Below are positions 13,994 to 58,246 of a stretch of DNA of 64,000 nt, piece by piece (position 1 is the stretch's first letter; every line of letters begins with the position of its first letter). The stretch spans positions 38,031 through 102,030 of the forward strand of contig JALWJX010000082.1 of assembly GCA_026996895.1 (NCBI GenBank). The letters run 5' to 3'. The stretch is from Candidatus Kapaibacterium sp. (GTDB lineage Bacteria > Bacteroidota > Ignavibacteria > Kapaibacteriales > WFXC01). The notes below the pieces were generated by a model. That model did not search any database. It worked only from the letters and a program-made list of their open reading frames with translations, and had not been told where the DNA came from. A program made the position numbers and the translations under genes.

Positions 13994-14012
13994 CGCTGCC
14001 CTTCCCTTGATA

Positions 14013-15020: not shown

Positions 15021-15214
15021 TGCTCTCGCCCTCCATTTCTGTTCTCGTCTTACCGAAAAGCTGTTATCGACGTTTCCTCCAGATTCCCATTGGTACGCTG
15101 CGCCTCACACCTTCAGGGTTCAACCCTGACGGTCACCTGTTTGCCAGACCGGCGACCATAAAGCAGTGGAACATTCGTCGCCTTTGCCGCTTTTGGCAGG
15201 GAACCAGGAAACGG

Positions 15215-28105: not shown

Positions 28106-31100
28106 ATGCGAAGAGCGTGGATCAGTGCTATAGGAATTTTCATCAGCGTTTCGGTTATCTGGGGACAAACGCCTTCCAACGGCGCATTGCTGCTGACCAA
28201 CAATGCTGCTTTTGTTGTCCTCCCTGGCAGCGACATTACCATTGCAACCAGTGCGGGGATCAAACAGGAAAATGCCAGTGCAATCGTGCTGTACGGCGAC
28301 CTGGAAAATCACGGTAAGATCGTCCCCGGCGATGGATACCTGTTGTGTACGGGTCCTTCGACGCAGGTCCTCCGGGGTACTCGGGAAATTACTCTTAACC
28401 ACTGGTGGTTCCGGAAATCTGCTCCTTCCGACGTTGTCAAAATCGACAACGATGTGCGGGTCTATCAGCCGCTCACTGTGAATACGGTCACCTTAGAAAT
28501 CATCCACAGCAGCTCACACACGGTCACCCTGGACAGCGATCTTAAAATCAATGCTGATGGCAAGTGGATCGTTGCTTCAACGGGGACGACGGGACGCGAC
28601 CATCAAATTGTGCTCCGTGGCAATGCCCAAATCGATGGACAATGGATTCTCCGACCCATTCTGAACAACGACAACTATCGTGCCCGCCTGCGATTTCAAA
28701 CGACCGCAACGCAAACACTCACTGGCAGCGGGACGGTGCAATTCTACCAGGTCATTCTCGACAAAGGAAGCAAGGCAAACCGGGTTGAAAGCCGGATGAA
28801 CGTCGGGCTGAGCGCTCTGGGCTCAGGCTCTGCGATGGATTTCATCGCCGGTACGTGGCAGCAAACGACGGGAACGTTGACATTCGACAATGGCGTGAGC
28901 GTTTCTTACAACGAAACTATTGCCGCTAACGGATCACTCCAGATCCTGGGCGATGCTTCGATGATCATCGGGCAAAATGGCGTTGGAAGCTCTTTGATCC
29001 TCGACGGAGGCGAATTCATCGTAAACACGACTGGATTTGCCAATATCGGCAGCCAGAACGATAATTCCCTGCAATACACGGATGCTGGCGGCAGTCGATT
29101 CGAGCTCCATCAGGGAACAGTGACTGTTGCTGGACGCTTTTCACGCCAAACGGCAACGGGAACCAACACAATAGACTATCTCCAGACGGGGGGCACGCTG
29201 ATCGTCGGTGCCGTTGGTCACTCGAACGGCTCCCTCGGAACCTTTGATATCGGTGCCAGCGGCTCTTCCTTCACAATGGGCGGCGGGACTATCATTTTGC
29301 GCAATGCAAACAGCTCCGGAAGCAGCAGCCGTCCGGCAGATTTCAATGTTCAGGCAGCAACCGTTGCAGTCTCCGGCGGCACGGTTCAATTTGGCGATGC
29401 AGGGACGACAACACTGCAGCGATTCGATTATGATGTCCCCAACGGCGCATTGTGGCACGTATCGGTCAGTTCTGCGAACGCCACGGTTTACCCTTTTTCC
29501 CCAACTTCCGATCTCCGCATTCAGGGGAACTTCTACAATGCAGGCAGATGGGATGGGACACAAACGCGATCGGGCACTGCTGTCTCAACGGCTGGGATTG
29601 TCTTTGAAGGTAGTGGTGCCACGTCGCAAACGGTGCGAAGTCTGGGAACAACGACCTTTGCAACGTTGCGGATGAACCGCGGTGCCGGCAGCGGCATTGT
29701 GCAACTGCTCGATGACATTTCTGTCTCCCACCAGGTTGATCTGCGCGAAGGCAGCAATAGCCAGCCACAGATTCTGGCGCTGGGCAGTGGAGCCAATCTC
29801 TATGTGCTGAGCACCAGCACCACGGCAATTATCGACTACGCCAGTGCGCCAATCCGATACATTCGCACCAGTACCACCAGCGGCCGTGTCGTATGGAACG
29901 TTACGGCGGGAAAGACCTACTTCTTCCCCATAGGATCAGCCGAAAGTGGTGATACGTACACTCCCGCTGAAGTTGCTATCGGCAGTGGCGGCAGCGATGG
30001 CAGGATCGGCATCCGGGTCTCCCGTGGGCAACGTGCCGATGGAGCGCATCTCCAACTCCCGTCGAGTGCAACAGACTTTCTGCGACGATACTGGTCGATT
30101 TCCAACGTCACAATGACCCATCCTGCACAATGGACGTTCTACTATCAGGATGGCGCTGCATACCTTGCAGGCAGTGAAGCGAATCTGGCGCAAGCAGGGC
30201 GATGGCGACCAATCAACGAGGCGCCCGGTGGCAACTGGGTCGGCTACGCTGCAACCGTTAACCCATCACAGAATTTCTTCCAGTTGCCCACCCTTGACGC
30301 TTCACTGCTGGAAGGAGATTGGACCTTAGCCAATGAAATTTTCCGACAAATTTTCTACAGCCGCCAGAGCGGACCGTGGAGTCAGCACACTTCGTGGACA
30401 TATAGTCCTACCCACGTCGGACCCAGTGTGGCAACTGGCGTTTATCCCGCCGCCGCCACGGATTCTGCTGTTATAGGCGGCGGCAGTTATGGTGTCGGCA
30501 ACCACCATATCCAGTTGGATCTTTCCGTCACGATCGGTGGCGTTACTGTCGGCACCTCAGCTACCAACACCGGCACCTTAGAACTCCGGGATAACATCAT
30601 CAGCGGTGATTGGTTTGTCCTCCAAGATCAATCCACCCTGATGATTGGCTCGACCAGTGGCATTATGGCAGCCCCAGCGGCAGCAGGGAATGTGCAGACG
30701 ACCTATCGAGTTTTCGCCACAACCGCAACATACGTCTACAATGGCACAACGAACCAGACGATCGGTACTGCTCTTCCTTCGACCGTCGCAACATTTCGGG
30801 TCGACAACACAGGACCTGCCGGCAACAATCGCGTAACGGTAGACCGAACCATCCAGGTCACCCGGGACTTAGAAATCCTCCAGGGCGAATTAGACGTCAC
30901 AACGGTCACAATGCCCAATGTTAGCGCCAGCGGAAATTTTGTTCTGGCTACCGACGCATCTGTCCGCATAGGGGGGAGCAACAACTTCGGTGCAGCCTTC
31001 GCCGGTTACACCACTTACACCTTAGCCACCAGCAGTACGGTGGAATTCTACGGCAACAGCAAAACGGTCGATATGCCTCCAAACGGCGGACTCGGCTATG

Positions 31101-31291
31101 GCTATCTGGTCATCTCTGATGCACCAACGAAGTACATCAATGCACCGTTGCGGGTCCGTCGGGACGTGACGATCAATCCCGGTGCTTTCCTCTGGAACAA
31201 CGTCAGCGGTAATCAATTCCAGGTACTCGGCAATATTGTCAATCACGGGCAGCTATGCAACGACGGTATTATCGAAATTGGAATACCATAG
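28106..31291 (+). CDS. Large secreted Ser/Thr/Gly-rich protein of unknown function (1061 aa), encoded upstream of giant fiber-like protein 1.
   Basis: It has a signal peptide (MRRAWISAIGIFISVSVIWGQ) and low-complexity beta-rich composition. It appears co-operonic with 31416-39587, with a 124-nt gap and no intervening motif. Confidence 0.6.
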   Translation: MRRAWISAIGIFISVSVIWGQTPSNGALLLTNNAAFVVLPGSDITIATSAGIKQENASAIVLYGDLENHGKIVPGDGYLLCTGPSTQVLRGTREITLNHWWFRKSAPSDVVKIDNDVRVYQPLTVNTVTLEIIHSSSHTVTLDSDLKINADGKWIVASTGTTGRDHQIVLRGNAQIDGQWILRPILNNDNYRARLRFQTTATQTLTGSGTVQFYQVILDKGSKANRVESRMNVGLSALGSGSAMDFIAGTWQQTTGTLTFDNGVSVSYNETIAANGSLQILGDASMIIGQNGVGSSLILDGGEFIVNTTGFANIGSQNDNSLQYTDAGGSRFELHQGTVTVAGRFSRQTATGTNTIDYLQTGGTLIVGAVGHSNGSLGTFDIGASGSSFTMGGGTIILRNANSSGSSSRPADFNVQAATVAVSGGTVQFGDAGTTTLQRFDYDVPNGALWHVSVSSANATVYPFSPTSDLRIQGNFYNAGRWDGTQTRSGTAVSTAGIVFEGSGATSQTVRSLGTTTFATLRMNRGAGSGIVQLLDDISVSHQVDLREGSNSQPQILALGSGANLYVLSTSTTAIIDYASAPIRYIRTSTTSGRVVWNVTAGKTYFFPIGSAESGDTYTPAEVAIGSGGSDGRIGIRVSRGQRADGAHLQLPSSATDFLRRYWSISNVTMTHPAQWTFYYQDGAAYLAGSEANLAQAGRWRPINEAPGGNWVGYAATVNPSQNFFQLPTLDASLLEGDWTLANEIFRQIFYSRQSGPWSQHTSWTYSPTHVGPSVATGVYPAAATDSAVIGGGSYGVGNHHIQLDLSVTIGGVTVGTSATNTGTLELRDNIISGDWFVLQDQSTLMIGSTSGIMAAPAAAGNVQTTYRVFATTATYVYNGTTNQTIGTALPSTVATFRVDNTGPAGNNRVTVDRTIQVTRDLEILQGELDVTTVTMPNVSASGNFVLATDASVRIGGSNNFGAAFAGYTTYTLATSSTVEFYGNSKTVDMPPNGGLGYGYLVISDAPTKYINAPLRVRRDVTINPGAFLWNNVSGNQFQVLGNIVNHGQLCNDGIIEIGIP

Positions 31292-31415: not shown

Positions 31416-34400
31416 ATGAAACACAGAGTCCAATTGATACTTCTGATCTGGTTGATTTTTTCACCCTTACTCTGGTCTCAGGGCAATCCCAGCGTTGGAA
31501 TCGGCACTTTTACCCCTGATCCTTCTGCAATCTTAGAGCTTCGCTCCACATCGAAGGGGTTCTTGGTGCCACGAATGACAACGGCACAACGGAATGCGAT
31601 CAGCTCTCCTGCTCTCTGGCTGCTGATCTTCAACACTGATACCCAGCAGTTTGAATACTGGAACGGCACGGTATGGATCCCGCTGATTTCTATACAAAAC
31701 GTCAGCAACAGTGCCTGGTCTCTCAGTGGCAACACGCTCACCGGGAGCGAGTTTCTTGGATCTGTGAATCTCCAGCCGGTAGTGTTCAAGACCAATGGTG
31801 CGGAGCGAATGCGGATTTCCACGACCGGCAATGTTGGTATCGGCATCATTACGCCGACCAATACCCTGCACGTTAAAGCAACCAGCAATCCCCTGCGACT
31901 GGAAGGCTTGCAGTCTCTGAGCAACGCTTCTACAATCTTAGCGGTCGATGCCAACGGCGTTGTCTACACCACCAGTGCCAGTTCCTTTACGGCATCGAAC
32001 GCCTGGTCGCTGACAGGAAATGCCGGCACTGATCCAAACACCGACTTTCTGGGTACGACGGACAATCAACCGCTGGTGATTCGGACGAACAACACCGAGC
32101 GGATGCGGATTCTGGCATCCGGTTTGGTCGGGATCGGAACCAATACCCCAACGAACACGTTGCACGTCAAAGCAACGAGCAACCCACTGCGGTTGGAAGG
32201 CGTGCAAACTACTGCCAGCGCTTCGACCCTGTTAGCCATCGACGCCAATGGGGTCGTGGTCTCGACCAGTGCCTCGACTTTTGTTGCCAACAACGCTTGG
32301 GCACTCAGCGGCAACACGCTCACTGGCAGTGAGTTCCTCGGATCAGTCAATGCCCAGCCGGTAGTGATCCGAACGAACAACACCGAGGCGATGCGGATCG
32401 ATGCCAATCAACGGGTGGGAATTGGAACGAACGCACCGAGCCACACCCTGCACGTTGCTGCGCCCAGCAATCCGTTGCGACTGGAAGGGTTGCAGTCATT
32501 GAGCAATGCGGGAACGATCTTAGCCGTGGATGCCAACGGTGTTGTCTACACCACCAGTGCCAGTGCCTTTGCTGCTGCTAACGCCTGGTCGCTGACAGGA
32601 AATGCCGGCACTGATCCGACAACGAATTTCCTGGGCACTACTGACAATCAACCGTTGGTGATCAGAGTCAATAATCTGCAAGCTGTGCGAATTGAACCAA
32701 CGAACCAAACGATCAATATCATCGTGGGAACTTCCAACATCGTCACTGCGGGCGTCTATGGAGCTGTTATTAGCGGTGGTGGATATGGAAACAATGAAAA
32801 TAAAGTCACAGACAACTTCAGTACAGTAAGCGGAGGAGTTTCAAATCAAGCTGGGAACAATAACGCTGATGTAACCGATGCACAGTACGCCACGGTCGGA
32901 GGAGGCTACGGAAATACTGCCAGCGGTTTAGGCAGCACTATTAGCGGTGGATGGAACAACACTGCCAGTGCTGCCCGGAGTACGATTGGTGGAGGATATA
33001 ACAACAATGCCATCGGATGGGGAACCACTATTGGGGGAGGTGCTGATAATATTGCCAGCAGCGAGTATAGCACAGTCAGTGGTGGGAAAAACAACAATGC
33101 CAACGTTGCTTATAGTACCATTGGAGGAGGTCTGCAAAATACTGCCAGTGGTCAATATAGTACCATTGGAGGAGGTCTGCAAAATACTGCCAGTGGTCAA
33201 TATAGTACCATTGGAGGAGGTCTGCAAAATACTGCCAGTGGTCAATATAGTACCATTGGAGGAGGCAGTGCTAATATAACAGGTGGCGATTGGAGCACTG
33301 TGAGCGGAGGATGGACAAACATTGCCAGCGGAGGTGGCAGCGTTGTTGGTGGTGGACGGGGCAATACAGCAGGTGGAGCCTATAGTACCATACCTGGAGG
33401 TCTCAACAACTCTGCCCTGGGTGATTATACCTATGCAGGAGGAAGAGCGATGTATTTGAGTACCTCGGCCAACCATACCTTTGTCTGGGGCTATGCAACG
33501 GCAACTTCTGCTATCACCGCCTCCGACGCCTTCCTCATCGGTCCCTACGGGAACAACTACCGCGTTGGGATCAATGTCGTTAATCCTACTGCTGCTCTGC
33601 ATGTCACCGCTGGAACGTGGACGTATCCATTGCGACTGGAAGGATTGCAGCCACTGAGCAACGCCGGAACGATCTTAGCGGTCGATGCCAACGGCGTTGT
33701 CTACACCACCAGTGCCAGTGCTTTTGCTGCTGCCAATGCCTGGACGCTGACAGGGAATGCCGGGACTGATCCAGCAATTAACTTCTTGGGTACAACGGAC
33801 AATCAACCACTGGTGATTCGCACCAACAACCTTGAACGGATGCGGATCTCCACGACCGGCAATGTCGGCATTGGCATCAGCACGCCGACCAACACGTTGC
33901 ACGTCAAAGCAACGAGCAACCCACTGCGGTTGGAAGGCGTGCAAACTACTGCCAGTGCTTCGACCCTGTTAGCCATCGACGCCAATGGGGTCGTGGTCTC
34001 GACCAGTGCCTCGACTTTTGTTGCCAACAACGCCTGGGCACTCAGCGGCAACACGCTCACTGGCAGTGAGTTCCTCGGATCAGTCAATGCCCAGCCGGTG
34101 GTGTTCAAGACCAGTGGAATTGAAGCGATGCGGATCGACGTTGATCAGCAGGTTGGGATCGGCACCAGCACACCAACGAACACCTTGCACGTTAAAGCGA
34201 CCATCGATCCGTTACGACTGGAAGGGTTGCAAACCACCAGTGCTACTGCGACGGTCCTGGTTTCGGACGCTGCGGGGATCGTGTACACCACCAGCGCTAG
34301 CGCTCTTGCTGCTGCCAATGCCTGGTCGCTCACTGGCAACGCTGGAACCAACCCAGCGAGCAACTTCTTAGGCACCACGGACAATCAGCCACTGATTATC

Positions 34401-37400
34401 AAAGTTAATAACGCACAGGCATTGCGCATAGAGCCAACTGTCGGATCCCCAAATATTCTGGGCGGCTACGGATTGAACAGTATCTCCAGTGGCGTAGTTG
34501 GAGCTGTTATCAGCGGTGGGGGTAGCACTGGATTATCGAACAAAGTCACCGACAATTATGGTGTTATCGGAGGCGGCGTGGGAAATCAAGTGGGAAACAA
34601 TAGCGGAGGAGCTATCGATGCTCAGTATGCAACCGTAGGTGGCGGCTATGGAAACACTGCCAGCAGTACCTCGAGCACCGTGGGTGGCGGTGAACTTAAC
34701 ATTGCCAGTGGACTCCGGAGCACTGTTGGCGGCGGTTATAGCAACACTGCCAGTGGCGATAGGGGTACTGTGGGAGGAGGTTACGGGAATACCGCCAGCG
34801 GCCCGGGCAGCACCGTTGCTGGTGGCGAGAATAATACTGCCAGTGGTGGCGTGAGTGCTGTGGGTGGCGGTGACAACAATATTGCCAGTGGTGATGTGAG
34901 CACTGTGGGTGGCGGTTATAGCAACATTGCCAGCGGTGCAGGAAGTACTGTGGGCGGCGGTACAAACAACACTGCTAGTGGCAATACCAGTACCGTATCA
35001 GGTGGAGCTTTCAATACTGCAGCAGGTGACGTTTCCTGGGCTGGAGGAGCATACATGTATCTGTCGCCCACCGCCGATCACACCTTTGTCTGGGGCTATG
35101 CAACGGCAACTTCTGCTATCACCGCCTCCGACGCCTTCCTCATCGGTCCCTACGGGAACAACTACCGCGTTGGGATCAATGTCGTTAATCCTACTGCTGC
35201 TCTGCATGTCACCGCTGGAACGTGGACATATCCATTGCGATTAGAAGGCTTGCAACCACTGAGCAATGCGGGGACAATCTTAGCGGTTGATGCCAACGGT
35301 GTTGTGTACACCACCAGTGCCAGTGCGTTTGCTGCTGCTAACGCCTGGGCACTGACAGGGAATGCCGGAACCGATCCAGCAATCAACTTCTTGGGTACTA
35401 CGGATAATCAACCGTTGGTGATTCGCATTAACAACCTTGAGCGGATGCGGATTTCCACCATCGGCAACGTCGGCATTGGCATCAGCACGCCGACCAACAC
35501 CTTGCACGTCAAAGCGACCAGTGATCCGTTGCGGTTAGAGGGCGTGCAGAGCAGTGCTAATGCGACGACCCTGTTAGCCATCGACGCCAGTGGAGTGGTA
35601 GTATCGACCAGCGCCTCGACCTTTGTTGCCAACAACGCTTGGGCACTCAGCGGCAACACCCTCACTGGCAGTGAGTTCCTCGGATCGGTCAATGCGCAGC
35701 CGGTGGTGATCCGGACCAACAACACCGAGGCGATGCGGATCGATGCCAACCAACGGGTGGGGATTGGAACCAATGCACCGAGCCACACCTTACACGTTGC
35801 TGCGCCCAGCAACCCGCTGCGGTTGGAAGGCTTGCAACCTCTGAGCAATGCGGGGACAATCTTAGCCATTGATGCCAATGGCGTGGTGTACACGACCAGT
35901 GCAACATCCTTCACCGCTGCCAATGCCTGGTCGCTCACAGGAAACGCCGGGACTGATCCAAACACCGACTTTCTGGGCACGACGGACAACCAACCGCTGG
36001 TGATTCGGACGAACAACACCGAACGGATGCGGATTCTGGCATCCGGACTGGTCGGCATCGGAACCAGCACACCGAGTCATACGTTGCACGTCAAAGCAAC
36101 GAGTGACCCGTTGCGGTTAGAGGGCGTGCAGAGCAGTGCTAATGCGACGACGCTGTTAGCCATCGATGTCAATGGGGTCGTGGTCTCGACCAGTGCCTCG
36201 ACTTTTGTTGCCAACAACGCTTGGGCACTCAGCGGCAACACGCTCACTGGCAGTGAGTTCCTCGGATCAGTCAATGCCCAGCCGGTAGTGATCCGGACGA
36301 ACAACACTGAGGCGATGCGGATCGATGCCAGTCAACGGGTGGGGATTGGAACGAACGCACCGAGCCACACCCTGCACGTTGCTGCGCCCAGCAATCCATT
36401 GCGTCTGGAAGGCTTGCAGTCATTGAGCAATGCCGGAACCATCTTAGCGGTCGATGCCAACGGCGTTGTCTACACCACCAGTGCAACATCCTTCACCGCT
36501 GCGAATGCCTGGGCACTCAGCGGCAACACCCTTACTGGCAGTGAGTTCCTCGGATCGCTCAATGCCCAGCCCGTGGTGTTCAAGACTAATGGCGTAGAAC
36601 GAATGCGAATTACTGCTGCTGGTGACATTGGCATTGGAACCACAACTCCAGGTGCCAAAGTTGACATCCGGGCGAATAGTGCCAGCGATCTGCTGGTTCG
36701 CATCTGGAACGCTGGTGGCAATGCAAAATTCCGCATCGTTGGTCAGGGTGGCAGTGCACAACCACGGTTTCAGTATACGGTCAACGCTGAATGGCTCTCC
36801 GAGATTGCCGGCAACACCAGTACAGGTTTGGAATTCCGAGTTCGTGCTCCGTCGGATCCAAATGACGAAGCAACTCTGGCAACCCGAACCCGGATGGTGG
36901 TTGGGAGGACGGGCAATGTCGGCATTGGAACGCTATCGCCAACGAATCGACTCCACGTCGTTGCTCCCAGCAACCCACTGCGACTGGAAGGGTTGCAGTC
37001 ATTGAGCAATGCGGGAACGATCTTAGCGGTCGATGCCAACGGCGTTGTCTACACCACCAGTGCAACATCCTTCACCGCTGCGAATGCCTGGGCACTGAGT
37101 GGGAATGCGGGAACCGATCCAAACACCGACTTTCTGGGTACGACGGATAATCAACCGCTGGTGATTCGGACGAACAACACCGAACGGATGCGGATTCTGG
37201 CATCCGGACTGGTCGGGATTGGAACCAATACCCCAACGAACACGTTGCACGTCAAAGCAACGAGCAACCCACTGCGGTTGGAAGGCGTGCAGACTACTGC
37301 CAGCGCTTCGACCCTGTTAGCCATCGATGTCAATGGGGTCGTGGTCTCGACCAGTGCCTCGACTTTTGTTGCCAACAACGCTTGGGCACTCAGCGGCAAC

Positions 37401-39587
37401 ACGCTCACTGGCAGTGAGTTCCTCGGATCAGTCAATGCCCAGCCGGTAGTGATCCGGACGAACAACACTGAGGCGATGCGGATCGATGCCAATCAACGGG
37501 TGGGGATTGGAACGAACGCACCGAGCCACACCCTGCACGTTGCTGCGCCCAGCAATCCGTTGCGTCTGGAAGGGTTGCAGTCATTGAGCAATGCCGGAAC
37601 GATCTTGGCGGTTGATGCTAACGGTGTGGTCTACACCACCAGCGCCAGTTCCTTTACAGCATCGAACGCCTGGTCGCTGACAGGAAACGCCGGGACTGAT
37701 CCGACAACGAATTTCCTGGGAACTACCGACAATCAACCACTGGTGATTCGCACCAACAACCTTGAACGGATGCGGATCTCCACGACCGGCAATGTCGGCA
37801 TTGGCATCAGCACGCCGACCAACACGTTGCACGTCAAAGCAACGAGCAACCCACTGCGGTTGGAAGGCGTGCAAACTACTGCCAGTGCTTCGACCCTGTT
37901 AGCCATCGACGCCAATGGGGTCGTGGTCTCGACCAGTGCCTCGACTTTTGTTGCCAACAACGCTTGGGCACTCAGCGGCAACACGCTCACTGGAAGTGAA
38001 TTTCTCGGATCGGTCAATGCGCAGCCGGTAGTGATCCGAACGAACAACACTGAGGCGATGCGGATCGATGCCAACCAACGGGTGGGGATTGGAACCAATG
38101 CACCGAGCCACACCTTACACGTTGCTGCGCCCAGCAACCCGCTGCGGTTGGAAGGTTTACAACCACTGAGCAACGCCGGAACGATCTTGGCGGTTGATGC
38201 TAACGGTGTGGTCTACACCACCAGCGCCAGTTCCTTTACAGCATCGAACGCCTGGTCGCTGACAGGAAACGCCGGGACTGATCCGACAACGAATTTCCTG
38301 GGAACTACTGACAATCAACCGCTGGTGATTCGGACCAACAATGCGGAACGGATGCGAGTGTTAGCCTCTGGCTACGTTGGTGTTGGGACGACCTCTCCAA
38401 CTGCCCGGTTAATGGCAGTCGAAGATGCACCCGGACAGGCAGTGATGCGAATCCAGAATCTGGATGCCGCTGGTCTTTCCGGTATTGAATTTCTGACCCA
38501 CACCTCTGCTGTAATGGGGTACGTTGGGCTGGAACCTGGCGGCGGTGCTCTGCGCATCTGGAGTCAGTCAAATATGATCCGGTTCTATACCAACGGCGTA
38601 GAACGGGTGCGAATCACGACCACCGGAAACGTTGGAATCGGATCCTTAGATCCGCAATATCGGCTGCACATTGAAGGCGATGGAATGATGTACGCCTCTG
38701 GAGAATTCGGCAAGGGCGCAACGATGCCAGAAGGAGCAAAGACGGCGTTCATCTGGAATCCGCGCAAAGCGGCATTGCGAGCAGGATCGGTGACAGCAGA
38801 TCAGTGGAACGATGCTCAGGTCGGCGCTTACACCGTCGCTTTTGGTAAAAACACGATTGCCAGTGGCGCATTTTCCGTTGCGGTTGGAGAAAACACGGTT
38901 GCTGAAGGAGCGGCTGCGTGGGTCGGCGGTCGGAATTTGCATCTGCTCCCGGATGCAACGGGTACGTTTGCCTGGGGCAATACCGAACACTCCACATCGA
39001 TCGAAACCAGTTATGCGTTCCTGATTGGTCCTGGAGATACGCCCTACCGTGTCGGGATCAACACGGCAACACCGACGTACGCACTGGAGTTGCCCAATGA
39101 CTCGCGAGCGAACGTGGGACAGGCACGAGCAAACGCGTGGCTGACATACGCAGATCCACGGATGTGGAGTGCAACTGAACCCATTGGCGCAACCAGTGAG
39201 CTGTTGTCACAACTCCAACCGCTTCGATACCGCGATGTTGCAGGCAAGAGCGGCTTCAGCTTTGATCCCCAGCAACTGGCAGCGGTTCTCCCGGAAGCGG
39301 TGGGGGTTCCAGCAGACAGCTCGCAGCAGTGGAGTATTAACTATGCAGCGCTCATTCCTGTGCTGGTCGCAATGCTCCAGGAACAGCAGCAGCAAATCCA
39401 GCAATTGCGGCAACAGAATCTGGCATTGCAACAGCAAGTTGCCGAAACACAGCAACTCCGGAAGCGACTGGCAAAAATGGAGCAGCAACTGTCAACGCTG
39501 GAACAGTTACAGCAGCAGGTTCGGTACCTGATCCAGCTCCAGCGTGAAGCACGCCCCGTTCCAACAGCAAGCAACGGCGGAAAATAA
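31416..39587 (+). CDS. Giant secreted repeat protein (about 2,720 aa). It has a signal peptide, about twenty ~95-aa modules, two YadA-head-like Gly-rich 14-mer blocks, a C-terminal tail-fiber intramolecular-chaperone (peptidase S74)-like domain and a Gln-rich coiled coil.
   Basis: It has a signal peptide (MKHRVQLILLIWLIFSPLLWSQ) after an aggaag ribosome-binding site. The module consensus is NAWSLTGNAGTDP..FLGTTDNQPLVIRTNN.ERMRI...VGIGT.TPT.TLHVKATSNPLRLEGLQ....LAVDANGVVYTTSAS. The STIGGGLQNTASGQYSTIGGG repeats resemble the YadA head. The C-terminus (LQPLRYRDVAGKSGFSFDPQQLAAVLPEAVGV....QWSINYAALIPVLVAMLQEQQQQIQQL) resembles the S74 chaperone domain. Confidence 0.8.
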   Translation: MKHRVQLILLIWLIFSPLLWSQGNPSVGIGTFTPDPSAILELRSTSKGFLVPRMTTAQRNAISSPALWLLIFNTDTQQFEYWNGTVWIPLISIQNVSNSAWSLSGNTLTGSEFLGSVNLQPVVFKTNGAERMRISTTGNVGIGIITPTNTLHVKATSNPLRLEGLQSLSNASTILAVDANGVVYTTSASSFTASNAWSLTGNAGTDPNTDFLGTTDNQPLVIRTNNTERMRILASGLVGIGTNTPTNTLHVKATSNPLRLEGVQTTASASTLLAIDANGVVVSTSASTFVANNAWALSGNTLTGSEFLGSVNAQPVVIRTNNTEAMRIDANQRVGIGTNAPSHTLHVAAPSNPLRLEGLQSLSNAGTILAVDANGVVYTTSASAFAAANAWSLTGNAGTDPTTNFLGTTDNQPLVIRVNNLQAVRIEPTNQTINIIVGTSNIVTAGVYGAVISGGGYGNNENKVTDNFSTVSGGVSNQAGNNNADVTDAQYATVGGGYGNTASGLGSTISGGWNNTASAARSTIGGGYNNNAIGWGTTIGGGADNIASSEYSTVSGGKNNNANVAYSTIGGGLQNTASGQYSTIGGGLQNTASGQYSTIGGGLQNTASGQYSTIGGGSANITGGDWSTVSGGWTNIASGGGSVVGGGRGNTAGGAYSTIPGGLNNSALGDYTYAGGRAMYLSTSANHTFVWGYATATSAITASDAFLIGPYGNNYRVGINVVNPTAALHVTAGTWTYPLRLEGLQPLSNAGTILAVDANGVVYTTSASAFAAANAWTLTGNAGTDPAINFLGTTDNQPLVIRTNNLERMRISTTGNVGIGISTPTNTLHVKATSNPLRLEGVQTTASASTLLAIDANGVVVSTSASTFVANNAWALSGNTLTGSEFLGSVNAQPVVFKTSGIEAMRIDVDQQVGIGTSTPTNTLHVKATIDPLRLEGLQTTSATATVLVSDAAGIVYTTSASALAAANAWSLTGNAGTNPASNFLGTTDNQPLIIKVNNAQALRIEPTVGSPNILGGYGLNSISSGVVGAVISGGGSTGLSNKVTDNYGVIGGGVGNQVGNNSGGAIDAQYATVGGGYGNTASSTSSTVGGGELNIASGLRSTVGGGYSNTASGDRGTVGGGYGNTASGPGSTVAGGENNTASGGVSAVGGGDNNIASGDVSTVGGGYSNIASGAGSTVGGGTNNTASGNTSTVSGGAFNTAAGDVSWAGGAYMYLSPTADHTFVWGYATATSAITASDAFLIGPYGNNYRVGINVVNPTAALHVTAGTWTYPLRLEGLQPLSNAGTILAVDANGVVYTTSASAFAAANAWALTGNAGTDPAINFLGTTDNQPLVIRINNLERMRISTIGNVGIGISTPTNTLHVKATSDPLRLEGVQSSANATTLLAIDASGVVVSTSASTFVANNAWALSGNTLTGSEFLGSVNAQPVVIRTNNTEAMRIDANQRVGIGTNAPSHTLHVAAPSNPLRLEGLQPLSNAGTILAIDANGVVYTTSATSFTAANAWSLTGNAGTDPNTDFLGTTDNQPLVIRTNNTERMRILASGLVGIGTSTPSHTLHVKATSDPLRLEGVQSSANATTLLAIDVNGVVVSTSASTFVANNAWALSGNTLTGSEFLGSVNAQPVVIRTNNTEAMRIDASQRVGIGTNAPSHTLHVAAPSNPLRLEGLQSLSNAGTILAVDANGVVYTTSATSFTAANAWALSGNTLTGSEFLGSLNAQPVVFKTNGVERMRITAAGDIGIGTTTPGAKVDIRANSASDLLVRIWNAGGNAKFRIVGQGGSAQPRFQYTVNAEWLSEIAGNTSTGLEFRVRAPSDPNDEATLATRTRMVVGRTGNVGIGTLSPTNRLHVVAPSNPLRLEGLQSLSNAGTILAVDANGVVYTTSATSFTAANAWALSGNAGTDPNTDFLGTTDNQPLVIRTNNTERMRILASGLVGIGTNTPTNTLHVKATSNPLRLEGVQTTASASTLLAIDVNGVVVSTSASTFVANNAWALSGNTLTGSEFLGSVNAQPVVIRTNNTEAMRIDANQRVGIGTNAPSHTLHVAAPSNPLRLEGLQSLSNAGTILAVDANGVVYTTSASSFTASNAWSLTGNAGTDPTTNFLGTTDNQPLVIRTNNLERMRISTTGNVGIGISTPTNTLHVKATSNPLRLEGVQTTASASTLLAIDANGVVVSTSASTFVANNAWALSGNTLTGSEFLGSVNAQPVVIRTNNTEAMRIDANQRVGIGTNAPSHTLHVAAPSNPLRLEGLQPLSNAGTILAVDANGVVYTTSASSFTASNAWSLTGNAGTDPTTNFLGTTDNQPLVIRTNNAERMRVLASGYVGVGTTSPTARLMAVEDAPGQAVMRIQNLDAAGLSGIEFLTHTSAVMGYVGLEPGGGALRIWSQSNMIRFYTNGVERVRITTTGNVGIGSLDPQYRLHIEGDGMMYASGEFGKGATMPEGAKTAFIWNPRKAALRAGSVTADQWNDAQVGAYTVAFGKNTIASGAFSVAVGENTVAEGAAAWVGGRNLHLLPDATGTFAWGNTEHSTSIETSYAFLIGPGDTPYRVGINTATPTYALELPNDSRANVGQARANAWLTYADPRMWSATEPIGATSELLSQLQPLRYRDVAGKSGFSFDPQQLAAVLPEAVGVPADSSQQWSINYAALIPVLVAMLQEQQQQIQQLRQQNLALQQQVAETQQLRKRLAKMEQQLSTLEQLQQQVRYLIQLQREARPVPTASNGGK
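31700..38350 (+). repeat. Intragenic tandem and interspersed DNA repeats (285-bp modules, many more than 90% identical over more than 300 bp) inside the giant gene.
   Basis: Near-identical stretches occur at about 32170-32480, 37260-37570 and 37850-38150, and at about 31830-32000, 33820-33990 and 37780-37950. The same spurious antisense ORFs (MHAFQPQWVARCFDVQRV...) appear three times. Confidence 0.8.
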
Positions 39588-40012: not shown

Positions 40013-40043
40013 GCAGGATGCTCTGCTGAGCAAAGCATCCTGC
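40013..40043. terminator. Perfect 10-bp stem-loop (gcaggatgct-N11-agcatcctgc) just downstream of the minus-strand outer-membrane-protein gene.
   Basis: The stem is a perfect inverted repeat. A weak T-tract (TTTCC) follows on the minus strand. Confidence 0.3.
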
Positions 40044-52141: not shown

Positions 52142-55100
52142 ATGATGGCACAATTGTGGAAACCGCGCCTAAATACAGTATTATTGACGATCGCTCTCTG
52201 GACTGTCTGTATCATTGCTGGCTGGTCTCAGACAGTTTTCCGCGAAGGAGGCATCCCCCGGATGGTCATTGCAACTACCGGCAATGTAGGGATTGGTACA
52301 ACCACTCCTTCTATCACTGCATTGCTGGAACTCAGCTCAACCTCCGCGGGGATCCTCATTCCCCGACTCACTCAGGCAGAGCGAGATGCAATCAACTCCC
52401 CTGCGTTGTGGTTATTGATCTTCAACACCACCGCCCAGCAGTTTGAATACTGGAACGGTTCGCAGTGGATTCCTTTAATTTCTGCTACTTCTCTCACTTC
52501 CAGCAGTTGGTCACTGACGGGGAACGCTGGAACCGACCCAGCGACCAATTTTCTGGGTACCACGGATAACCAGCCGTTGGTGATTCGGACGAACAACACC
52601 GAAGTAATGCGGGTTACCACTACTGGCAACGTTGGGATTGGCACCAGTGCTCCCGGCTATCGCCTTCACCTTGCTGCTGATGGGATGATCTATGCGGAAG
52701 GAACTTTTGGTGCGGGAGCAACCGTTCCGCCGGGAGCGAAGACAGCGTTTATCTGGAACCCGCGCAAAGCGGCGATTCGAGCTGGACAGGTAACGGGCAA
52801 TCAGTGGGATGATGCGAATGTTGGCAACTACTCGGTTGCTTTTGGGTACGCTAACACTGCCAGTGGTGCTGGGAGCACCGTTGGTGGTGGGCAGGGCAAC
52901 GTTGCCAGCGGTCAGAATAGCACCCTCGGTGGTGGCTACCTGAACACCGCCAGCGGCAACTGGAGCACTGTCGGCGGCGGCTATCAGAACACCGCCAGTG
53001 GCGTTACCAGTACCATCGGTGGTGGTCTTTCCAACACTGCCAGCGATTATTATAGCACCGTCGGCGGCGGTCAACAAAACATCGCCAGCGGCACTGGCAG
53101 CACCGTCAGCGGCGGCGTCCAGAACACTGCCAGCGGGCACTATAGCACTGTTAGCGGTGGCTTTTACAACACCGCCAGCGGTTACTCCAGTATTGTCAGC
53201 GGGGGTCGGAACAATACTGCTGGCGGTGATTACTCCTGGGCAGGTGGCGGCTATATGTACCTCAGCGCTGCTGCCGATCGCACCTTCGTCTGGGGGTATG
53301 CCACGGTGACAACGGCGATTACTGCTTCGGATGCCTTTCTGATTGGTCCGTATGGCAACAGTTACCGTGTTGGGATCAACGTATTGAACCCTGCCGCGGC
53401 ACTGCATGTCAACGTTGGAAGCTGGTCGTACCCGCTACGGGTGGAAGGATTACCGACAACGAGCGCCAGCAGTACGGTGCTGGTCTCAGATGCCGCAGGG
53501 ATCGTGTACACCACCAGTGCCAGTGCACTGGCGGCATCCAATGCCTGGTCGCTGACAGGAAATGCCGGGACCGATCCAACAACGAATTTCCTGGGAACCA
53601 TTGACAACCGACCCCTGGTGATTCGCACGAACAACACCGAAGTAATGCGGGTTACCACTACTGGCAACGTTGGCGTTGGGACAGTGACACCAACAGTGAA
53701 GTTACACGTCAAGGCTGTCAGCAATCCGCTACGGCTGGAAGGGTTGCAGCCTTTGAGCAACGCCAGCACGATTTTAGCCGTCGATGGTAGCGGCGTGGTC
53801 TACACCACCAGTGCCAGTAGCCTGGCATCTGCCAGCGCGTGGAACATTACGGGGAACAGTGGTACAGATCCAGCAACGAACTTCTTAGGAACGACCGATA
53901 ATCAGCCGCTGGTGATTCGGACCAACAATGTAGAGCGGATGCGGATCACTGTTAACGGCTATGTTGGCATTGGAACAGATACTCCTGGGGAAATGCTGGA
54001 TATTGTCGGCAACTCCGATGCTGATCTGAATCTCACTTCCTTTGGTTCTTCCATTAGCACTATTCATATGCGTCGAGCCTTAGGAAGCAAATCTTCTCCA
54101 GCACCGGTAACCAACAATAACAACTTAGGTGGTGTCGAAGGCTTAGGGTACGACGGAACACAATACGTCCGGGCTGCGGGTATTGATTTTCAGGTTGATG
54201 GACCGGTCACCGCCAATGTAGTACCAGGACGGATTGTATTTCGAGTCCGACGACAAGGAAGTACCAGCTGGGGCGGAGAGGAGCAGGTGTTTATCAAAAA
54301 TGATGGAAAGGTAGGAATTCGGGTTGCCCATCCAACACATCGGCTGCACGTTGTAGCAGAAACTGGGGAAGATCCGCTCCGCCTGGAGGGTCTGCGAACG
54401 ACAACAGCGACGGTGGATTTGCTGGTTGCCACAGCCAGCGGCAGTGTGCATACCAGCAACGTACAGAGTTTAGTGGGCACTGTCGCCTGGTTGCTCACTG
54501 GAAATGCGGGGACAGATCCGGCGACGAATTTCTTAGGAACGACCGATAATCAGCCGTTGATCATCAAAGTAAACAACACGCAGGCATTGCGCATTGATCC
54601 CAACAGTGTATCGCCCAACATTATAGGCGGGTACAGCGGCAATAGCATTGCCAGCAGCGTTGTTGGGGCAATCATTAGCGGTGGTGGGAAGACAGCGGGA
54701 ACCAATCAGGTCACTGATAATTATGGCGTAGTCGGCGGCGGCGCTGGCAATCGAGCTGGCAATAATAGCGGGACAACCACTGATGCAGCGTATGCAACTG
54801 TGGGGGGAGGCTACGTTAATATAGCCAGTGGACAATACAGTATGGTTGGAGGGGGACAGAGCAACGTTGCCAGCGGGAACCATACTGTAGTTGCAGGGGG
54901 ATATAACAATCATGCCATTGGCAGTTACACTGCCGTTGGAGGGGGCATTAATAACAGTGCAAATGGCAATTATGGAATTGTCAGTGGAGGGGAACTCAAC
55001 AATGCCAGTGGTAGTTATAGCACCATTAGTGGGGGAAAGAGCAACATCGCCAGTGGTCAATACAGTGTTATAGGAGGCGGAATAAATAATGTTGCCAGCA

Positions 55101-58100
55101 ATACTTACAGTACCGTAGGAGGTGGATCTGGAAATCAAGCCAGCAGTTGGGCCAGCACAGTGGGAGGAGGACAGGGAAACACGGCAGGAGGAAATGGTGG
55201 AACGATCAGCGGCGGAGAAAACAACACTATCAATGCAGTTCTGGGTACAATCGGAGGAGGACAGGGAAACACGGTCAGTGGAGATAGAGGGACAATTGCA
55301 GGGGGACAGAATAACGCTGTTAATGGTATTGCAGGCACAATCGGAGGAGGACAGGGAAACACGGCAGGAGGAAATGGAAGTACAATCGCTGGAGGACAAA
55401 GTAATACTGCCAGCAGTAGTTATAGCAGCATTGGTGGAGGTATAAACAACAGTGCCAATGGCAACAATAGCACCGTTGGCGGTGGGGAACTCAACAGTGC
55501 CAGCGGCAGTCATAGTACTGTTGGAGGTGGCAAGAGCAACGCTGCTGGAGGTAGTTATAGCACAATCGGGGGAGGCATTAATAACGCTGCTGAAAACAAC
55601 TATAGTGCAGTCGTTGGCGGTCAAAATAACAAAGCCAGAGGATGGTACAGCACGATTGGAGGTGGAGGTGATAATAGCGTGAGCGGGAGATATAGTACGA
55701 TCAGCGGAGGAAGGGGCAATACCGTAGCAGGCGATTATGGATGGGCTGGGGGACGGGGAATGTACGCCGTGAGTTCTGCTGATCGGACCTTTGTCTGGGG
55801 CTATGCAACAGCGACGACGGCAATTACGGTATCAGATGCGTTTTTGATCGGTCCGTACGGGAACAGCTATCGAGTCGGGATCAACATACTGAATCCAACC
55901 GCGGCATTGCACGTCAATGCTGGGACGTGGAGCTACCCATTGCGGGTAGAGGGATTACCCTCAACCAGTGCCAGTAGCACAGTGCTGGTATCGGATGCCA
56001 GTGGGATTATTTACACCACCAGCGCCAGCAGTCTGGTCGGAAGTAATGTATGGTTGTTAACCGGCAATGCGGGCACGAATCCGGCAAGCAATTTCCTGGG
56101 TACCACCGATAATCAACCACTATCGATCCGCAGCAACAATCAGGAGGTTGTGCGAATTTCAACCTCGGGTGTGCAAATGCTACATCATAATACCACCTCT
56201 GTCCTCAGCATAGGTCCCAATCAACGAGTGAAAATTCAGGAATACCAACCGCACAGTGGAACTGATATTGGTGCCCCGGTGTGGGGGCGAGGCAGGATCA
56301 GTGTTGGAGGGACTGTCATCACAGGCTTTTGGCCCGCCGTGAAGTTTAACACGTACTGGAATCCTGCCGTAAGTCAGAACGTCCACATCACAACAGGGTC
56401 AGCATTCGTGATCAACCACGAACAGGACCCCGCTGCAAACAATCTGGTCATTTACTACTCCCCGTACCGATCAGCAGGTCAACAGTTTCAATACAATATA
56501 GGGCTTGCACTGACAACTTCCGGCAATGTTGGCGTTGGAACTGATACCCCAACAGCGAAGCTCCATATCAGCGCAACCAGTGCACCTTTGCGGCTGGAAG
56601 GATTGCAGGCAACCAGTGCAACGACAACCTTGTTGGCAGCAGATGGGCAGGGGGTGGTATATGCAACCAATGCCAGCAGTTTGATCAACAATCAGGCGTG
56701 GTCATTATTTGGCAACAGCGGGACGGACCCAGCAGTGAACTTCGTAGGAACTATCGACGCCCAACCGCTGGTGTTCCGGACGGGCAACGTTGAACGGGCG
56801 CGGATTACAACAGCAGGGCATCTGGGGATTGGAACCTCAAATCCCGGGTGGCTTCTGGATGTTGCTGGAACTGTCCACTTCGGAACCAGCGGAAACTTTG
56901 GAACCATCATTGCTGATATGCAGGCAGCCAACTTGTATGCTGGGGGATTGCAGGTGCGTAAGCGTGGAGCCACTGGAGATGCAAATGCGGCCGTCGTGGA
57001 TGGTTCAGAAATTGGTTATCACGATTTCTGGGGCTGGGATGGGAACAATTACAAGCGGTTAGCATACGTATTGGTAACCGCTCACGGAAATATTACCCCA
57101 GGCAGCGGTGGGGGCGATTATGCGATCGTAACTCGGGATCCAACGACCAATACTGAAGAGACTCGACTTTTCATCGATGCTCGAGGATATGTTGGGATCG
57201 GAACGACAACGCCGCTGCGACGCCTGGTGGTTGGCAATGACGATATTAACGGCATCAGTCTGGAAGAAGGCACCAGTCCGAATGCGGGATATTTGCGTTT
57301 TGGCGATAATACGGGATGGAAGTTTCACATTGGTCGCTCTCGGGAAAGCACATCAGGACCGTTGAATATAAGCACAACCGGGGTATTGGTAACAATTCAG
57401 GATGACGGCAACGTAGGAATTGGCAACACAGCACCACCAGCAACGTTGACAATCACAAATGCTATAGAGCTGCGCGGCAGTGGGAATGTATCATCGGTAG
57501 AAAGTGATATTCTCTTCACCTACAGCGGCGGTATTGCGGCGCAGAATAGTTTATACTTCTTCATTGATGCTGACAACAATGATGATGATACTCGAGCTTT
57601 CCGATTTCGCCGCAATGGGGAGACCATTAGTTCAACCAACACTGAAGATTTAATGGTCATTCGGGAAAGTGGAAAGGTTGGCATTGGGGTCGGTAATCCG
57701 AGCAATATTCTCACCATCGTACAAAACTCTTCCACAGATCCTATTGCCGATGCGTGGACAACGTATTCCACGCCGGAGACGAAAATCGTGTTAGGAACAC
57801 TGGATGCTGAAGCGCTGGAAGAATACCTCCGCCAGTTCAAGCAGTTGCCCATATATAAATGGCAGCGGACGGAAAGCGAACCGATCCGGGTCAGTGCAAT
57901 GGCAGAACCGGGCACACCGTCAGAAATTATGGCGTACGATGAAAAAGGAGAAATCCAGGGAATCGACCTGCAGGGATACATCGGGTTCTTACACACAGTG
58001 GTCAAAGCCCAACAGCAAATCTTAGAGCAGCAGCAGGCAGCGATCCAGCAACTCCAGACATCGACGCAACGCCAGCAGACAGAGATCCAGCAGCTTCGGC

Positions 58101-58246
58101 AACAACTGGCAACTCTGCAGCAGGTGCTGGAGCAGGACAGGAAACGCCAGGCGGAAGTAACAGCGCTGCGGCAGGTAGTGCTCCAGCTGCAGCAGCAAAT
58201 CGAACAGCTCCAGCAGCAACTCAAAGTGACACAGAGCCAGCAGTAG
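52142..58246 (+). CDS. Giant secreted repeat protein 2 (2034 aa), a paralog of 31416-39587 with the same module types, Gly-rich 14-mer blocks and a C-terminal S74-like chaperone domain plus Gln-rich coiled coil.
   Basis: It has a signal peptide (MMAQLWKPRLNTVLLTIALWTVCIIAGWSQ). Modules read NAWSLTGNAGTDPATNFLGTTDNQPLVIRTNNTEVMRV. Gly-rich repeats read STVGGGQGNVASGQNSTLGGG. The C-terminus reads STPETKIVLGTLDAEALEEYLRQFKQLPIYKWQR...IQGIDLQGYIGFLHTVVKAQQQILEQQQAAIQQL. Confidence 0.8.
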   Translation: MMAQLWKPRLNTVLLTIALWTVCIIAGWSQTVFREGGIPRMVIATTGNVGIGTTTPSITALLELSSTSAGILIPRLTQAERDAINSPALWLLIFNTTAQQFEYWNGSQWIPLISATSLTSSSWSLTGNAGTDPATNFLGTTDNQPLVIRTNNTEVMRVTTTGNVGIGTSAPGYRLHLAADGMIYAEGTFGAGATVPPGAKTAFIWNPRKAAIRAGQVTGNQWDDANVGNYSVAFGYANTASGAGSTVGGGQGNVASGQNSTLGGGYLNTASGNWSTVGGGYQNTASGVTSTIGGGLSNTASDYYSTVGGGQQNIASGTGSTVSGGVQNTASGHYSTVSGGFYNTASGYSSIVSGGRNNTAGGDYSWAGGGYMYLSAAADRTFVWGYATVTTAITASDAFLIGPYGNSYRVGINVLNPAAALHVNVGSWSYPLRVEGLPTTSASSTVLVSDAAGIVYTTSASALAASNAWSLTGNAGTDPTTNFLGTIDNRPLVIRTNNTEVMRVTTTGNVGVGTVTPTVKLHVKAVSNPLRLEGLQPLSNASTILAVDGSGVVYTTSASSLASASAWNITGNSGTDPATNFLGTTDNQPLVIRTNNVERMRITVNGYVGIGTDTPGEMLDIVGNSDADLNLTSFGSSISTIHMRRALGSKSSPAPVTNNNNLGGVEGLGYDGTQYVRAAGIDFQVDGPVTANVVPGRIVFRVRRQGSTSWGGEEQVFIKNDGKVGIRVAHPTHRLHVVAETGEDPLRLEGLRTTTATVDLLVATASGSVHTSNVQSLVGTVAWLLTGNAGTDPATNFLGTTDNQPLIIKVNNTQALRIDPNSVSPNIIGGYSGNSIASSVVGAIISGGGKTAGTNQVTDNYGVVGGGAGNRAGNNSGTTTDAAYATVGGGYVNIASGQYSMVGGGQSNVASGNHTVVAGGYNNHAIGSYTAVGGGINNSANGNYGIVSGGELNNASGSYSTISGGKSNIASGQYSVIGGGINNVASNTYSTVGGGSGNQASSWASTVGGGQGNTAGGNGGTISGGENNTINAVLGTIGGGQGNTVSGDRGTIAGGQNNAVNGIAGTIGGGQGNTAGGNGSTIAGGQSNTASSSYSSIGGGINNSANGNNSTVGGGELNSASGSHSTVGGGKSNAAGGSYSTIGGGINNAAENNYSAVVGGQNNKARGWYSTIGGGGDNSVSGRYSTISGGRGNTVAGDYGWAGGRGMYAVSSADRTFVWGYATATTAITVSDAFLIGPYGNSYRVGINILNPTAALHVNAGTWSYPLRVEGLPSTSASSTVLVSDASGIIYTTSASSLVGSNVWLLTGNAGTNPASNFLGTTDNQPLSIRSNNQEVVRISTSGVQMLHHNTTSVLSIGPNQRVKIQEYQPHSGTDIGAPVWGRGRISVGGTVITGFWPAVKFNTYWNPAVSQNVHITTGSAFVINHEQDPAANNLVIYYSPYRSAGQQFQYNIGLALTTSGNVGVGTDTPTAKLHISATSAPLRLEGLQATSATTTLLAADGQGVVYATNASSLINNQAWSLFGNSGTDPAVNFVGTIDAQPLVFRTGNVERARITTAGHLGIGTSNPGWLLDVAGTVHFGTSGNFGTIIADMQAANLYAGGLQVRKRGATGDANAAVVDGSEIGYHDFWGWDGNNYKRLAYVLVTAHGNITPGSGGGDYAIVTRDPTTNTEETRLFIDARGYVGIGTTTPLRRLVVGNDDINGISLEEGTSPNAGYLRFGDNTGWKFHIGRSRESTSGPLNISTTGVLVTIQDDGNVGIGNTAPPATLTITNAIELRGSGNVSSVESDILFTYSGGIAAQNSLYFFIDADNNDDDTRAFRFRRNGETISSTNTEDLMVIRESGKVGIGVGNPSNILTIVQNSSTDPIADAWTTYSTPETKIVLGTLDAEALEEYLRQFKQLPIYKWQRTESEPIRVSAMAEPGTPSEIMAYDEKGEIQGIDLQGYIGFLHTVVKAQQQILEQQQAAIQQLQTSTQRQQTEIQQLRQQLATLQQVLEQDRKRQAEVTALRQVVLQLQQQIEQLQQQLKVTQSQQ

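Follow-up and report, generated by a model that had tools for sequence, protein, structure and literature searches.

The 64,000-nucleotide stretch of contig JALWJX010000082.1 from Candidatus Kapaibacterium sp. analysed here (the window) carries on its plus strand a gene of 8.2 kb for a giant repetitive protein. We consider it likely that this protein is a Sec-exported trimeric surface fibre resembling the mosaic adhesive trimer (MAT) fibres of Bdellovibrio bacteriovorus, the folding of which is nucleated by a non-cleaving cap derived from the S74 intramolecular chaperone together with a long coiled coil, and which adheres probably by lateral heads of the UspA1 type. Host-encoded, signal-peptide-bearing fibres that end in an S74 domain are already known, both from the MAT family and from the abundant “tail fiber domain-containing proteins” of Bacteroidota. 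New are an S74 domain that is catalytically dead yet conserved, the very large size and variable module number, the UspA1-type heads within a shaft of the MAT type, and the presence of such a fibre in Kapaibacteria. The parts of the gene, all on the plus strand, are as follows.

31416..39587, +, whole gene, MAT-like fibre protein of 2,723 aa (open reading frame (ORF) call; homolog P0251 with the same termini)
31416..31478, +, Sec signal peptide, aa 1-21 (sequence features; cleavage predicted before Gln22)
31479..31709, +, N-terminal domain, aa 22-98 (77 aa), assigned to Pfam PF26696 “PTL_trimer” (flags on homologs; AlphaFold2 (AF2) model)
31710..32579, +, shaft modules B1-A1-B2, aa 99-388 (PHROG tail fibre families; Bd3182 and Bd2133 fibres in PDB)
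32580..33734, +, head unit 1, aa 389-773: half-module, UspA1-type beta-roll head, neck, half-module (3PR7, PF18792, Tandem Repeats Finder (TRF))
33735..34316, +, shaft modules A2-B3, aa 774-967 (module alignment)
34317..35339, +, head unit 2, aa 968-1308: second UspA1-type head
35340..36503, +, shaft modules A3-B4-A4-B5, aa 1309-1696 (module alignment)
36504..37082, +, variant module, aa 1697-1889: ~95-aa unit inserted between two capping-loop motifs
37083..38246, +, shaft modules A5-B6-A6-B7, aa 1890-2277 (module alignment)
38247..39044, +, terminal shaft, aa 2278-2543: half-module, two variant units, small YadA-like head
39045..39365, +, S74-like intramolecular chaperone domain without catalytic residues, aa 2544-2650
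39342..39551, +, Q-rich helix of ~70 residues, aa 2643-2712, predicted trimeric coiled coil continuing the C-terminal helix of the chaperone

The C-terminal chaperone domain and its lost active site

Sequence and fold both show the last ~180 aa to be a homolog of the S74 intramolecular chaperone. Almost all database relatives of this region carry Pfam PF13884, and one such relative (P0002) aligns by BLASTP across the entire domain (E 1e-29, 43% identity). A hidden Markov model (HMM) built from canonical members only, with the focal protein and its ortholog excluded, spans aa 2545-2679 completely, scoring 82 bits (E 2e-21 at a nominal database size of 10^6), and 0 of 200 shuffled sequences were reported by it. 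The family profile recovers the phage S16 fibre (6F45, E 1.6e-12) and the MyRF ICA (7DC3, E 1.9e-7) from the PDB and also matches 8JOV and phi29 gp12 (3GUD). The AF2 model of the last 180 aa reached a predicted local distance difference test (pLDDT) score of 87.6 and shows the S74 fold, a beta-hairpin “donut” with a long C-terminal helix, and its top 11 PDB matches in Foldseek were all 7DC3 (probability 1.00), 3GW6 and 3GUD. Within this model, residues 100-169 form the Q-rich helix (pLDDT 93-98); trimerisation of the MyRF ICA is driven mainly by its C-terminal triple coiled coil (PMC8326128). A preliminary description of this DNA, made from the sequence alone, had read the last ~170 aa as an S74-type chaperone followed by a poly-Gln coiled coil, and both parts of that reading were borne out, the homology by the canonical-only HMM, BLASTP and AF2/Foldseek, and the coiled coil in the form of a Q-rich helix predicted to be one. 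As in the S74/CIMCD domains of phage endosialidases, tail fibres and the MyRF ICA (PF13884; 3GW6, 3GUD, 6F45, 7DC3), the domain is placed after a beta-helical stalk, predicted to be trimeric here, and its C-terminal helix is predicted to be a trimerising coiled coil. Unlike canonical S74 domains, it has neither the Ser-Lys dyad nor the Gly and Ala of the GFIAQE motif and scores below the Pfam model, and unlike in phage S74 fibres, the helix is extended to ~70 residues and the protein is predicted to be Sec-exported rather than assembled in the cytoplasm.

Pfam position 1 falls on the Ser of an SDxRxK motif in all PF13884-positive relatives. The focal protein reads ADPRMW instead, and all alignments put Ala2579 (39150-39152) at the position of Ser and Trp2584 (39165-39167) at that of Lys; in the GFIAQE motif, Gly is replaced by Ser2615 and Ala by Pro2618. 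All four positions are conserved in the relatives (S in 120/121, K in 121/121, G and A each in 122/122), while apparently structural residues (D, R, F, Q, P, V, Y, L, E, Q, I) are retained in the focal domain. Among ~330 relatives surveyed (61 genomic ORFs, 121 database relatives and 145 cluster representatives), the change is confined to the lineage of the focal Kapaibacterium itself (L003, P0001 and P0251). A survey of 62 ORFs in 58 reference-genome loci, the search pattern of which accepted Ser or Ala, found dyad loss shared only by the Kapaibacterium homolog in L003, the closest genome, a Candidatus Kapaibacterium metagenome-assembled genome with 96% identity over the C-terminus. The 121 informative database relatives all have Lys and only one lacks Ser. 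An exhaustive search returned 3,086 cluster-representative relatives at E<=1e-3, and of 145 representatives drawn from it, 142 have all of S, K, G and A, Lys alone is missing in two, and only P0251 has A/W/S/P. The substituted codons are identical across three independent assemblies, and a codon alignment of the domain with L003 gave a ratio of nonsynonymous to synonymous substitution rates (dN/dS) of 0.07 at dS 0.33; the domain is therefore under purifying selection and not decaying. Partial loss of the dyad may occur elsewhere among S74 relatives, as rare changes at single catalytic positions were seen in P0118 (Ser to Tyr) and in P0276 and P0317 (Lys to Asn or Val, with the alignment of P0317 being uncertain).

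In MyRF, either S587A or K592A alone abolishes cleavage (PMC8326128), and Bd3182 with S782A gives a single unprocessed species (PMC10769870). Since a single mutation at either dyad position in MyRF, or at the Ser in Bd3182, is sufficient, the auto-cleaving, self-processing C-terminus that had been claimed for this protein is unsupported: both dyad residues are replaced, by Ala and Trp, and two more invariant residues are lost. From the residue changes and these mutants, we infer that the domain still trimerises and chaperones without cutting itself off. A limited literature search found no paper describing S74 domains that lack the dyad. The opposite reading, in which an active S74 peptidase would free itself once folding is complete and thereby expose a binding tip, would need an alternative nucleophile or cleavage in trans within mixed trimers formed with the product of a second fibre gene of the window (the paralog at 52142-58246). 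Thr2577 and Ser2585 do flank the motif, the fold and most structural residues are retained, and the paralog has Ser and Lys at the aligned positions. Nevertheless, we regard this as improbable given that the dyad and the invariant Gly and Ala are all replaced, that Lys is found in 121/121 relatives, and that single substitutions kill cleavage in the two proteins mentioned above; hetero-trimers are unlikely because the domain of the paralog is only ~21% identical and is itself devoid of D, R and GFIAQ.

For the non-cleaving fibre that we favour, the following assembly can be proposed. After export, the S74-derived domain and the ~70-residue coiled coil would align three chains in register, probably assisted by the N-terminal PTL_trimer domain, and this registration would template the folding of the intertwined shaft with its ~20 capping-loop units. 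Whereas a canonical S74 chaperone cuts itself off at the Ser of SDxxxK, the Ala/Trp version would not be released and would persist as a permanent distal cap and coiled-coil extension. Binding would then most likely occur via the two large UspA1-type heads and the small terminal head along the shaft, not via a cleft at the tip that is unmasked by cleavage. Homology suggests display on the cell surface and an adhesive role, and the N-terminus would be proximal to the cell. If the rise per residue resembles that of Bd3182, which has a modelled length of ~550 A (PMC10769870), the fibre might be of the order of 150-200 nm long.

More tentatively, and with some doubt on our side, the domain might be a natural pseudo-protease, i.e. 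a transient, self-removing chaperone that was turned into a permanent distal module (a trimerisation clamp plus the 70-residue Q-rich coiled coil), possibly with a function of its own such as docking of the 1,061-aa protein encoded upstream or masking of the tip. Four invariant or near-invariant residues associated with the active site are gone and the domain is strongly conserved, which makes it a natural experiment and argues that the folding and trimerising role can outlast cleavage. If these readings are true, chaperoning and proteolysis are naturally separable in the S74 family, and Kapaibacteria possess very long MAT-like fibres in which adhesion has shifted from the tip to lateral UspA1-type heads. 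Such a fibre might serve for cell-cell attachment in mats or for attachment to other bacteria, as in the predatory and epibiotic lineages that are rich in relatives.

Shaft modules, lateral heads and the N-terminal domain

The shaft is composed of 13 complete modules that alternate between two types, A (98 aa) and B (96 aa), identical to each other at 61/98 positions, and half-modules flank the heads and inserts. “VGIGTxxPxxxL” units total 20, the spacing of the capping-loop search pattern having been set from aligned crystal sequences, so that an earlier count of about twenty near-identical ~95-aa modules was a fair one, with 13 of these units being complete modules. Same-type modules share 69-99% of their amino acids vs 67-96% of their nucleotides, and this excess of amino acid identity indicates that the copies are conserved by selection and not merely recent duplicates; nucleotide differences between modules amount to 4-33% and are mainly synonymous. 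The repeated module matched PHROG tail fibre families with E 4e-102 and 8e-64, and the focal module pair alone matched the Bdellovibrio fibres Bd3182 (8OJN, E 6e-7) and Bd2133 (8OND, E 4e-5) in the PDB, the latter being recovered with E 1.6e-24 by the module family profile. The 95-aa module, to which no function could be assigned in the preliminary description, is thus the shaft unit of MAT and phage tail fibres. The claim of a secreted, tail-fibre-like giant protein is likewise supported, by these PHROG matches together with the signal-peptide features described below.

Two large Gly-rich heads interrupt the shaft, the first comprising 13 units of 15 aa, with an unbroken run at aa 492-656, and the second 11 such units, unbroken at aa 1072-1206. 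Head block 1 matches the head of Moraxella UspA1 (3PR7) with E 1.1e-31, and Pfam PF18792 (UspA1_rep) matches the fibre protein with E 3e-8. Ahead of the C-terminal domain there is a small third head that resembles YadA, and a 93% identical homolog (P0001) matches YadA_head (E 2.9e-4). Two blocks of 14-residue repeats resembling the beta-roll of YadA had been proposed from the sequence; the number of blocks and their likeness to heads of trimeric autotransporters hold, while the period is 15 residues and not 14. Within head 1, TRF detected a 45-bp unit at 33111-33265 with 3.4 copies and 100% identity that codes for STIGGGLQNTASGQY units, and this repeat is a candidate for slipped-strand length variation.

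The 15-residue Gly-rich beta-roll repeats are shared with trimeric autotransporters such as Moraxella UspA1 and Yersinia YadA, and the protein is very large, repetitive and predicted to be secreted, which might suggest a trimeric autotransporter adhesin (type Vc) or an S-layer-type protein. This we hold to be extremely unlikely. Trimeric autotransporters possess a C-terminal beta-barrel anchor and a coiled-coil stalk, whereas a Pfam scan of the whole fibre protein found no YadA anchor, the C-terminus consists of the S74-like domain, the coiled coil and a short polar tail, and the heads sit between modules of a MAT or tail-fibre type shaft. The autotransporter reading was rejected for the missing anchor. 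No SLH or other S-layer anchoring domain was found in the Pfam scan either, and the earlier label “S-layer-like” is without supporting evidence.

The fibre begins with MKHRVQLILLIWLIFSPLLWS, followed after the predicted cleavage site by QGNPS. Its n-region is charged, its h-region is strong, with a mean Kyte-Doolittle value of 2.98 over 10 aa, and a c-region is present, with [A/S/G]-Q immediately ahead of the first domain. An h-region is present in 41/43 family members with a Met start, and [A/S/G]-Q precedes the N-domain in 41/43 as well, in agreement with the signal peptide that had been noticed before. Gln at position +1 is typical for signal peptidase I substrates of Bacteroidetes. The following 77 aa correspond to PTL_trimer (PF26696), an indirect assignment by precomputed flags on homologs and not by a direct model match to the focal protein: the flag tracks the focal N-domain exactly (domain present in 41/42 flagged and 0/78 unflagged homologs), and the ortholog P0251 carries it. 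The AF2 model of this domain is beta-rich (pLDDT 87-97), and its fold found no convincing match in the PDB, with a weak likeness to the trimerisation domains of collagen XV/XVIII. It is presumed to act as a cell-proximal trimerisation or docking domain. The same domain stands right behind the signal peptide in at least 8 other S74-terminated ORFs from Chlorobiota, Saprospiraceae, Chitinophagales, Bacteroidales and Cyclobacteriaceae, and it is found at the start of many proteins of ~300 aa that have C1q or collagen tips; phmmer searches with it gave no match in Micavibrio or Pseudobdellovibrionaceae loci. Nothing on PF26696 or PTL_trimer turned up in the literature searched.

MAT fibres, with an S74 subgroup exemplified by Bd3182, were described in B. 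bacteriovorus by Caulton et al. 2024 (PMC10769870; PDB 8OJN, 8ONB, 8ONC, 8OND, 8OML, 8OL4 and 8ON4). They are host-encoded and bear signal peptides, and 13/21 family members end in S74. Together with the 3,086 domain relatives mentioned above, this makes host-encoded S74 fibres with signal peptides an established class, so that the protein is less unusual than had been thought. The Kapaibacterium fibre and the MAT fibres are both chromosomal and host-encoded, start with a signal peptide and a conserved N-terminal domain, possess a long shaft of beta-helical units bounded by VG(I)G/N-x-x-x-P-x-x-x-L capping loops, for which MAT fibres are the best structural matches, and terminate in an S74-type domain, with a mosaic build that includes swapped-in adhesive folds. 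They differ in the ADPRMW motif that stands in place of SDxxxK, with which self-cleavage is not expected, in the N-domain (77-aa PTL_trimer vs a beta-rich domain of ~130 aa), in the ~2.7 times greater length and internal UspA1-type heads of the focal protein, and in the host, as Kapaibacterium belongs to the Fibrobacteres-Chlorobi-Bacteroidetes (FCB) group and a predatory lifestyle is not known for it. Also among the closest known proteins are those annotated as “tail fiber domain-containing” in Bacteroidota, Chlorobiota, Ignavibacteriota and the candidate phyla radiation (CPR) and the PTL_trimer proteins with C1q, collagen or S74 tips. The plan common to these proteins and the fibre comprises a signal peptide, PTL_trimer, a half-module, a variable shaft and a tip, but most of them have only 200-1,800 aa, and those with an S74 domain that were surveyed outside the focal lineage all retain the catalytic Ser, with Lys missing in two. 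MAT-type fibres have been characterised in Bdellovibrio only, where they act in prey recognition, and the same construction kit of phage-type shaft units, swapped-in adhesin heads and an S74 cap is now seen at ~3x the size in an uncultured member of the FCB group.

Genomic context, assembly and points against the fibre

The gene content of the window is that of an ordinary chromosome, with two phosphofructokinases (PFK), pyruvate kinase, NAD kinase, a ClpB-like gene, HPPK, glycosyltransferases, a TonB-dependent receptor, a methyl-accepting chemotaxis protein and an extracytoplasmic function (ECF) sigma factor. A comparison of the neighbours of the fibre gene in the window with PHROG gave zero family matches, and genes for phage, baseplate, sheath, tube or extracellular contractile injection system (eCIS) proteins were found neither in the window nor in the 29-kb homologous locus L061, where chromosomal synteny is kept; the non-phage chromosomal locus suggested previously is hence confirmed. 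The fibre could still belong, as an orphan tail fibre, to a phage, prophage or eCIS whose genes lie elsewhere in the genome, and be assembled in the cytoplasm onto a baseplate. Its shaft modules match PHROG tail-fibre families, and the eCIS fibres of Bacteroidota (eBAP2 group) bear S74 or C1q tips (PMC12923769), which are tip types that also occur with PTL_trimer. Such an origin is very unlikely, however, as a Sec signal peptide is present in the focal protein and 41/43 family members, ~90% of eCIS fibres sit downstream of baseplate genes, and eBAP1/2, the baseplate-anchor domains to which this comparison was confined, are alpha-helical bundles of ~50 aa (PMC12923769) vs the beta-rich focal N-domain. 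Gene content and the signal peptide led us to reject both the prophage and the eCIS reading, and an annotation as “tail fiber protein” alone is no evidence for a prophage. Cargo of the type 9 secretion system (T9SS) was considered as well and rejected, because neither Pfam nor NCBIfam matched a T9SS C-terminal sorting domain (Por_Secre_tail / TIGR04183) in the fibre.

Several points weigh against the trimeric MAT-like fibre that we favour. Pfam PF13884 did not match the whole protein or its last 228 aa at E<=1, scans of the same two queries with Pfam and NCBIfam gave coiled-coil noise and spurious, repeat-driven matches (TORC_C, rhamnosidase_N), and phmmer of the C-terminus against PDB sequences gave coiled-coil noise only. 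The preliminary description had proposed the PF13884 search as a check and would have dropped the S74 assignment upon its failure, which would have wrongly rejected the homology; PF13884 misses pseudo-protease versions of S74 of this kind. The 77-aa PTL_trimer domain is not demonstrably the same as the ~130-aa N-domain of MAT fibres, and neither an outer-membrane anchor nor a secretion signal can be recognised (T9SS sorting domain, YadA anchor or lipobox). Monomer AF2 models of the shaft modules are poor (pLDDT about 50-60), and trimerisation, surface display and the absence of cleavage are what we infer for the fibre. Finally, short-read contigs break inside the fibre gene and its module copy number is possibly affected by assembly, with P0251 having 19 modules vs 13 in the focal fibre.

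The ORF runs on the plus strand from an ATG at 31416 to a stop at 39587, and this ATG is the likely start because the full-length homolog P0251 starts with MKHTFQL. The exact protein of 2,723 aa had no record in the contig collection searched. An assembly artefact, by which collapsed or expanded repeats would render the exact length and order of the modules unreal, might be suspected from the exact repeats of up to 236 nt within the gene, the breaks of short-read contigs and the differing module count of the homolog. We consider even a partial artefact unlikely, since the frame is open across 8.2 kb, the modules differ at 4-33% of nucleotides mostly synonymously, and P0251 is an intact homolog of 3,108 aa with the same termini, two heads and upstream synteny on an independent metagenomic scaffold of 190 kb; besides, it would touch only the copy number and not the identity of the parts. 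The difference between 19 and 13 modules indicates that shaft length differs between lineages.

Neighbouring genes and relatives

Two further genes of the window bear on the fibre.

28106..31291, +, secreted protein of 1,061 aa, family unassigned (ends 125 nt before the fibre gene)
52142..58246, +, paralog of 2,034 aa (PTL_trimer N-domain, MAT-type modules, two UspA1-like heads)

The 1,061-aa protein gave no Pfam, NCBIfam or PHROG match. Its counterpart in L061, the locus of P0251, is 97% identical and in the equivalent position, where the upstream order of NHL protein, 335-aa protein, TonB-dependent receptor, 533-aa protein, 1,034-aa secreted protein and fibre is kept, and it is absent beside relatives in other phyla. 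It is a possible functional partner of the fibre. Conserved neighbours were sought across 58 related loci, and none were found outside the own lineage. The C-terminus of the paralog is a diverged S74-like domain (hhalign probability 96.4%, E 1e-9) that retains Ser and Lys (STPETK) and has lost Asp, Arg and the GFIAQ motif.

Between the fibre gene and a convergent gene for a 379-aa protein, a perfect 14-bp GC-rich hairpin followed by a minus-strand T-tract (40013-40043) may be a bidirectional terminator. A block of HPPK, amidohydrolase, PFK, three glycosyltransferases and the ClpB-like gene occupies 11855-19890 of the window, upstream of the fibre gene, and is inverted and directly downstream of the fibre in both L061 (20497-28532) and L003 (2656-10691); it represents an inversion with one breakpoint adjoining the 3' end of the fibre gene. 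The ClpB-like ORF (18565-19890, +) stops after 441 aa (Clp_N, a single AAA domain and lid), and the same holds for L061 and L003. It is followed by a small MNT-like nucleotidyltransferase gene and an overlapping gene with an Rx4H HEPN-like motif (20278-20920, +), a pair that looks like a toxin-antitoxin pair. The region between both fibre genes encodes a large secreted surface protein of 1,669 aa (45790-50799, -), which contains Ig-like, ASH and BNR domains and weakly matches a T9SS C-terminal sorting domain (E 0.044).

Relatives of the S74 tip (L004-L060) are conspicuously frequent in predatory or epibiotic lineages (Aureispira, Saprospiraceae, Micavibrio and Pseudobdellovibrionaceae) and likewise in several CPR phyla (Saccharibacteria, Moraniibacteria, Dojkabacteria, Pacebacteria and Roizmanbacteria). 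Two copies are arranged in tandem at some loci (L010, L028 and L044).

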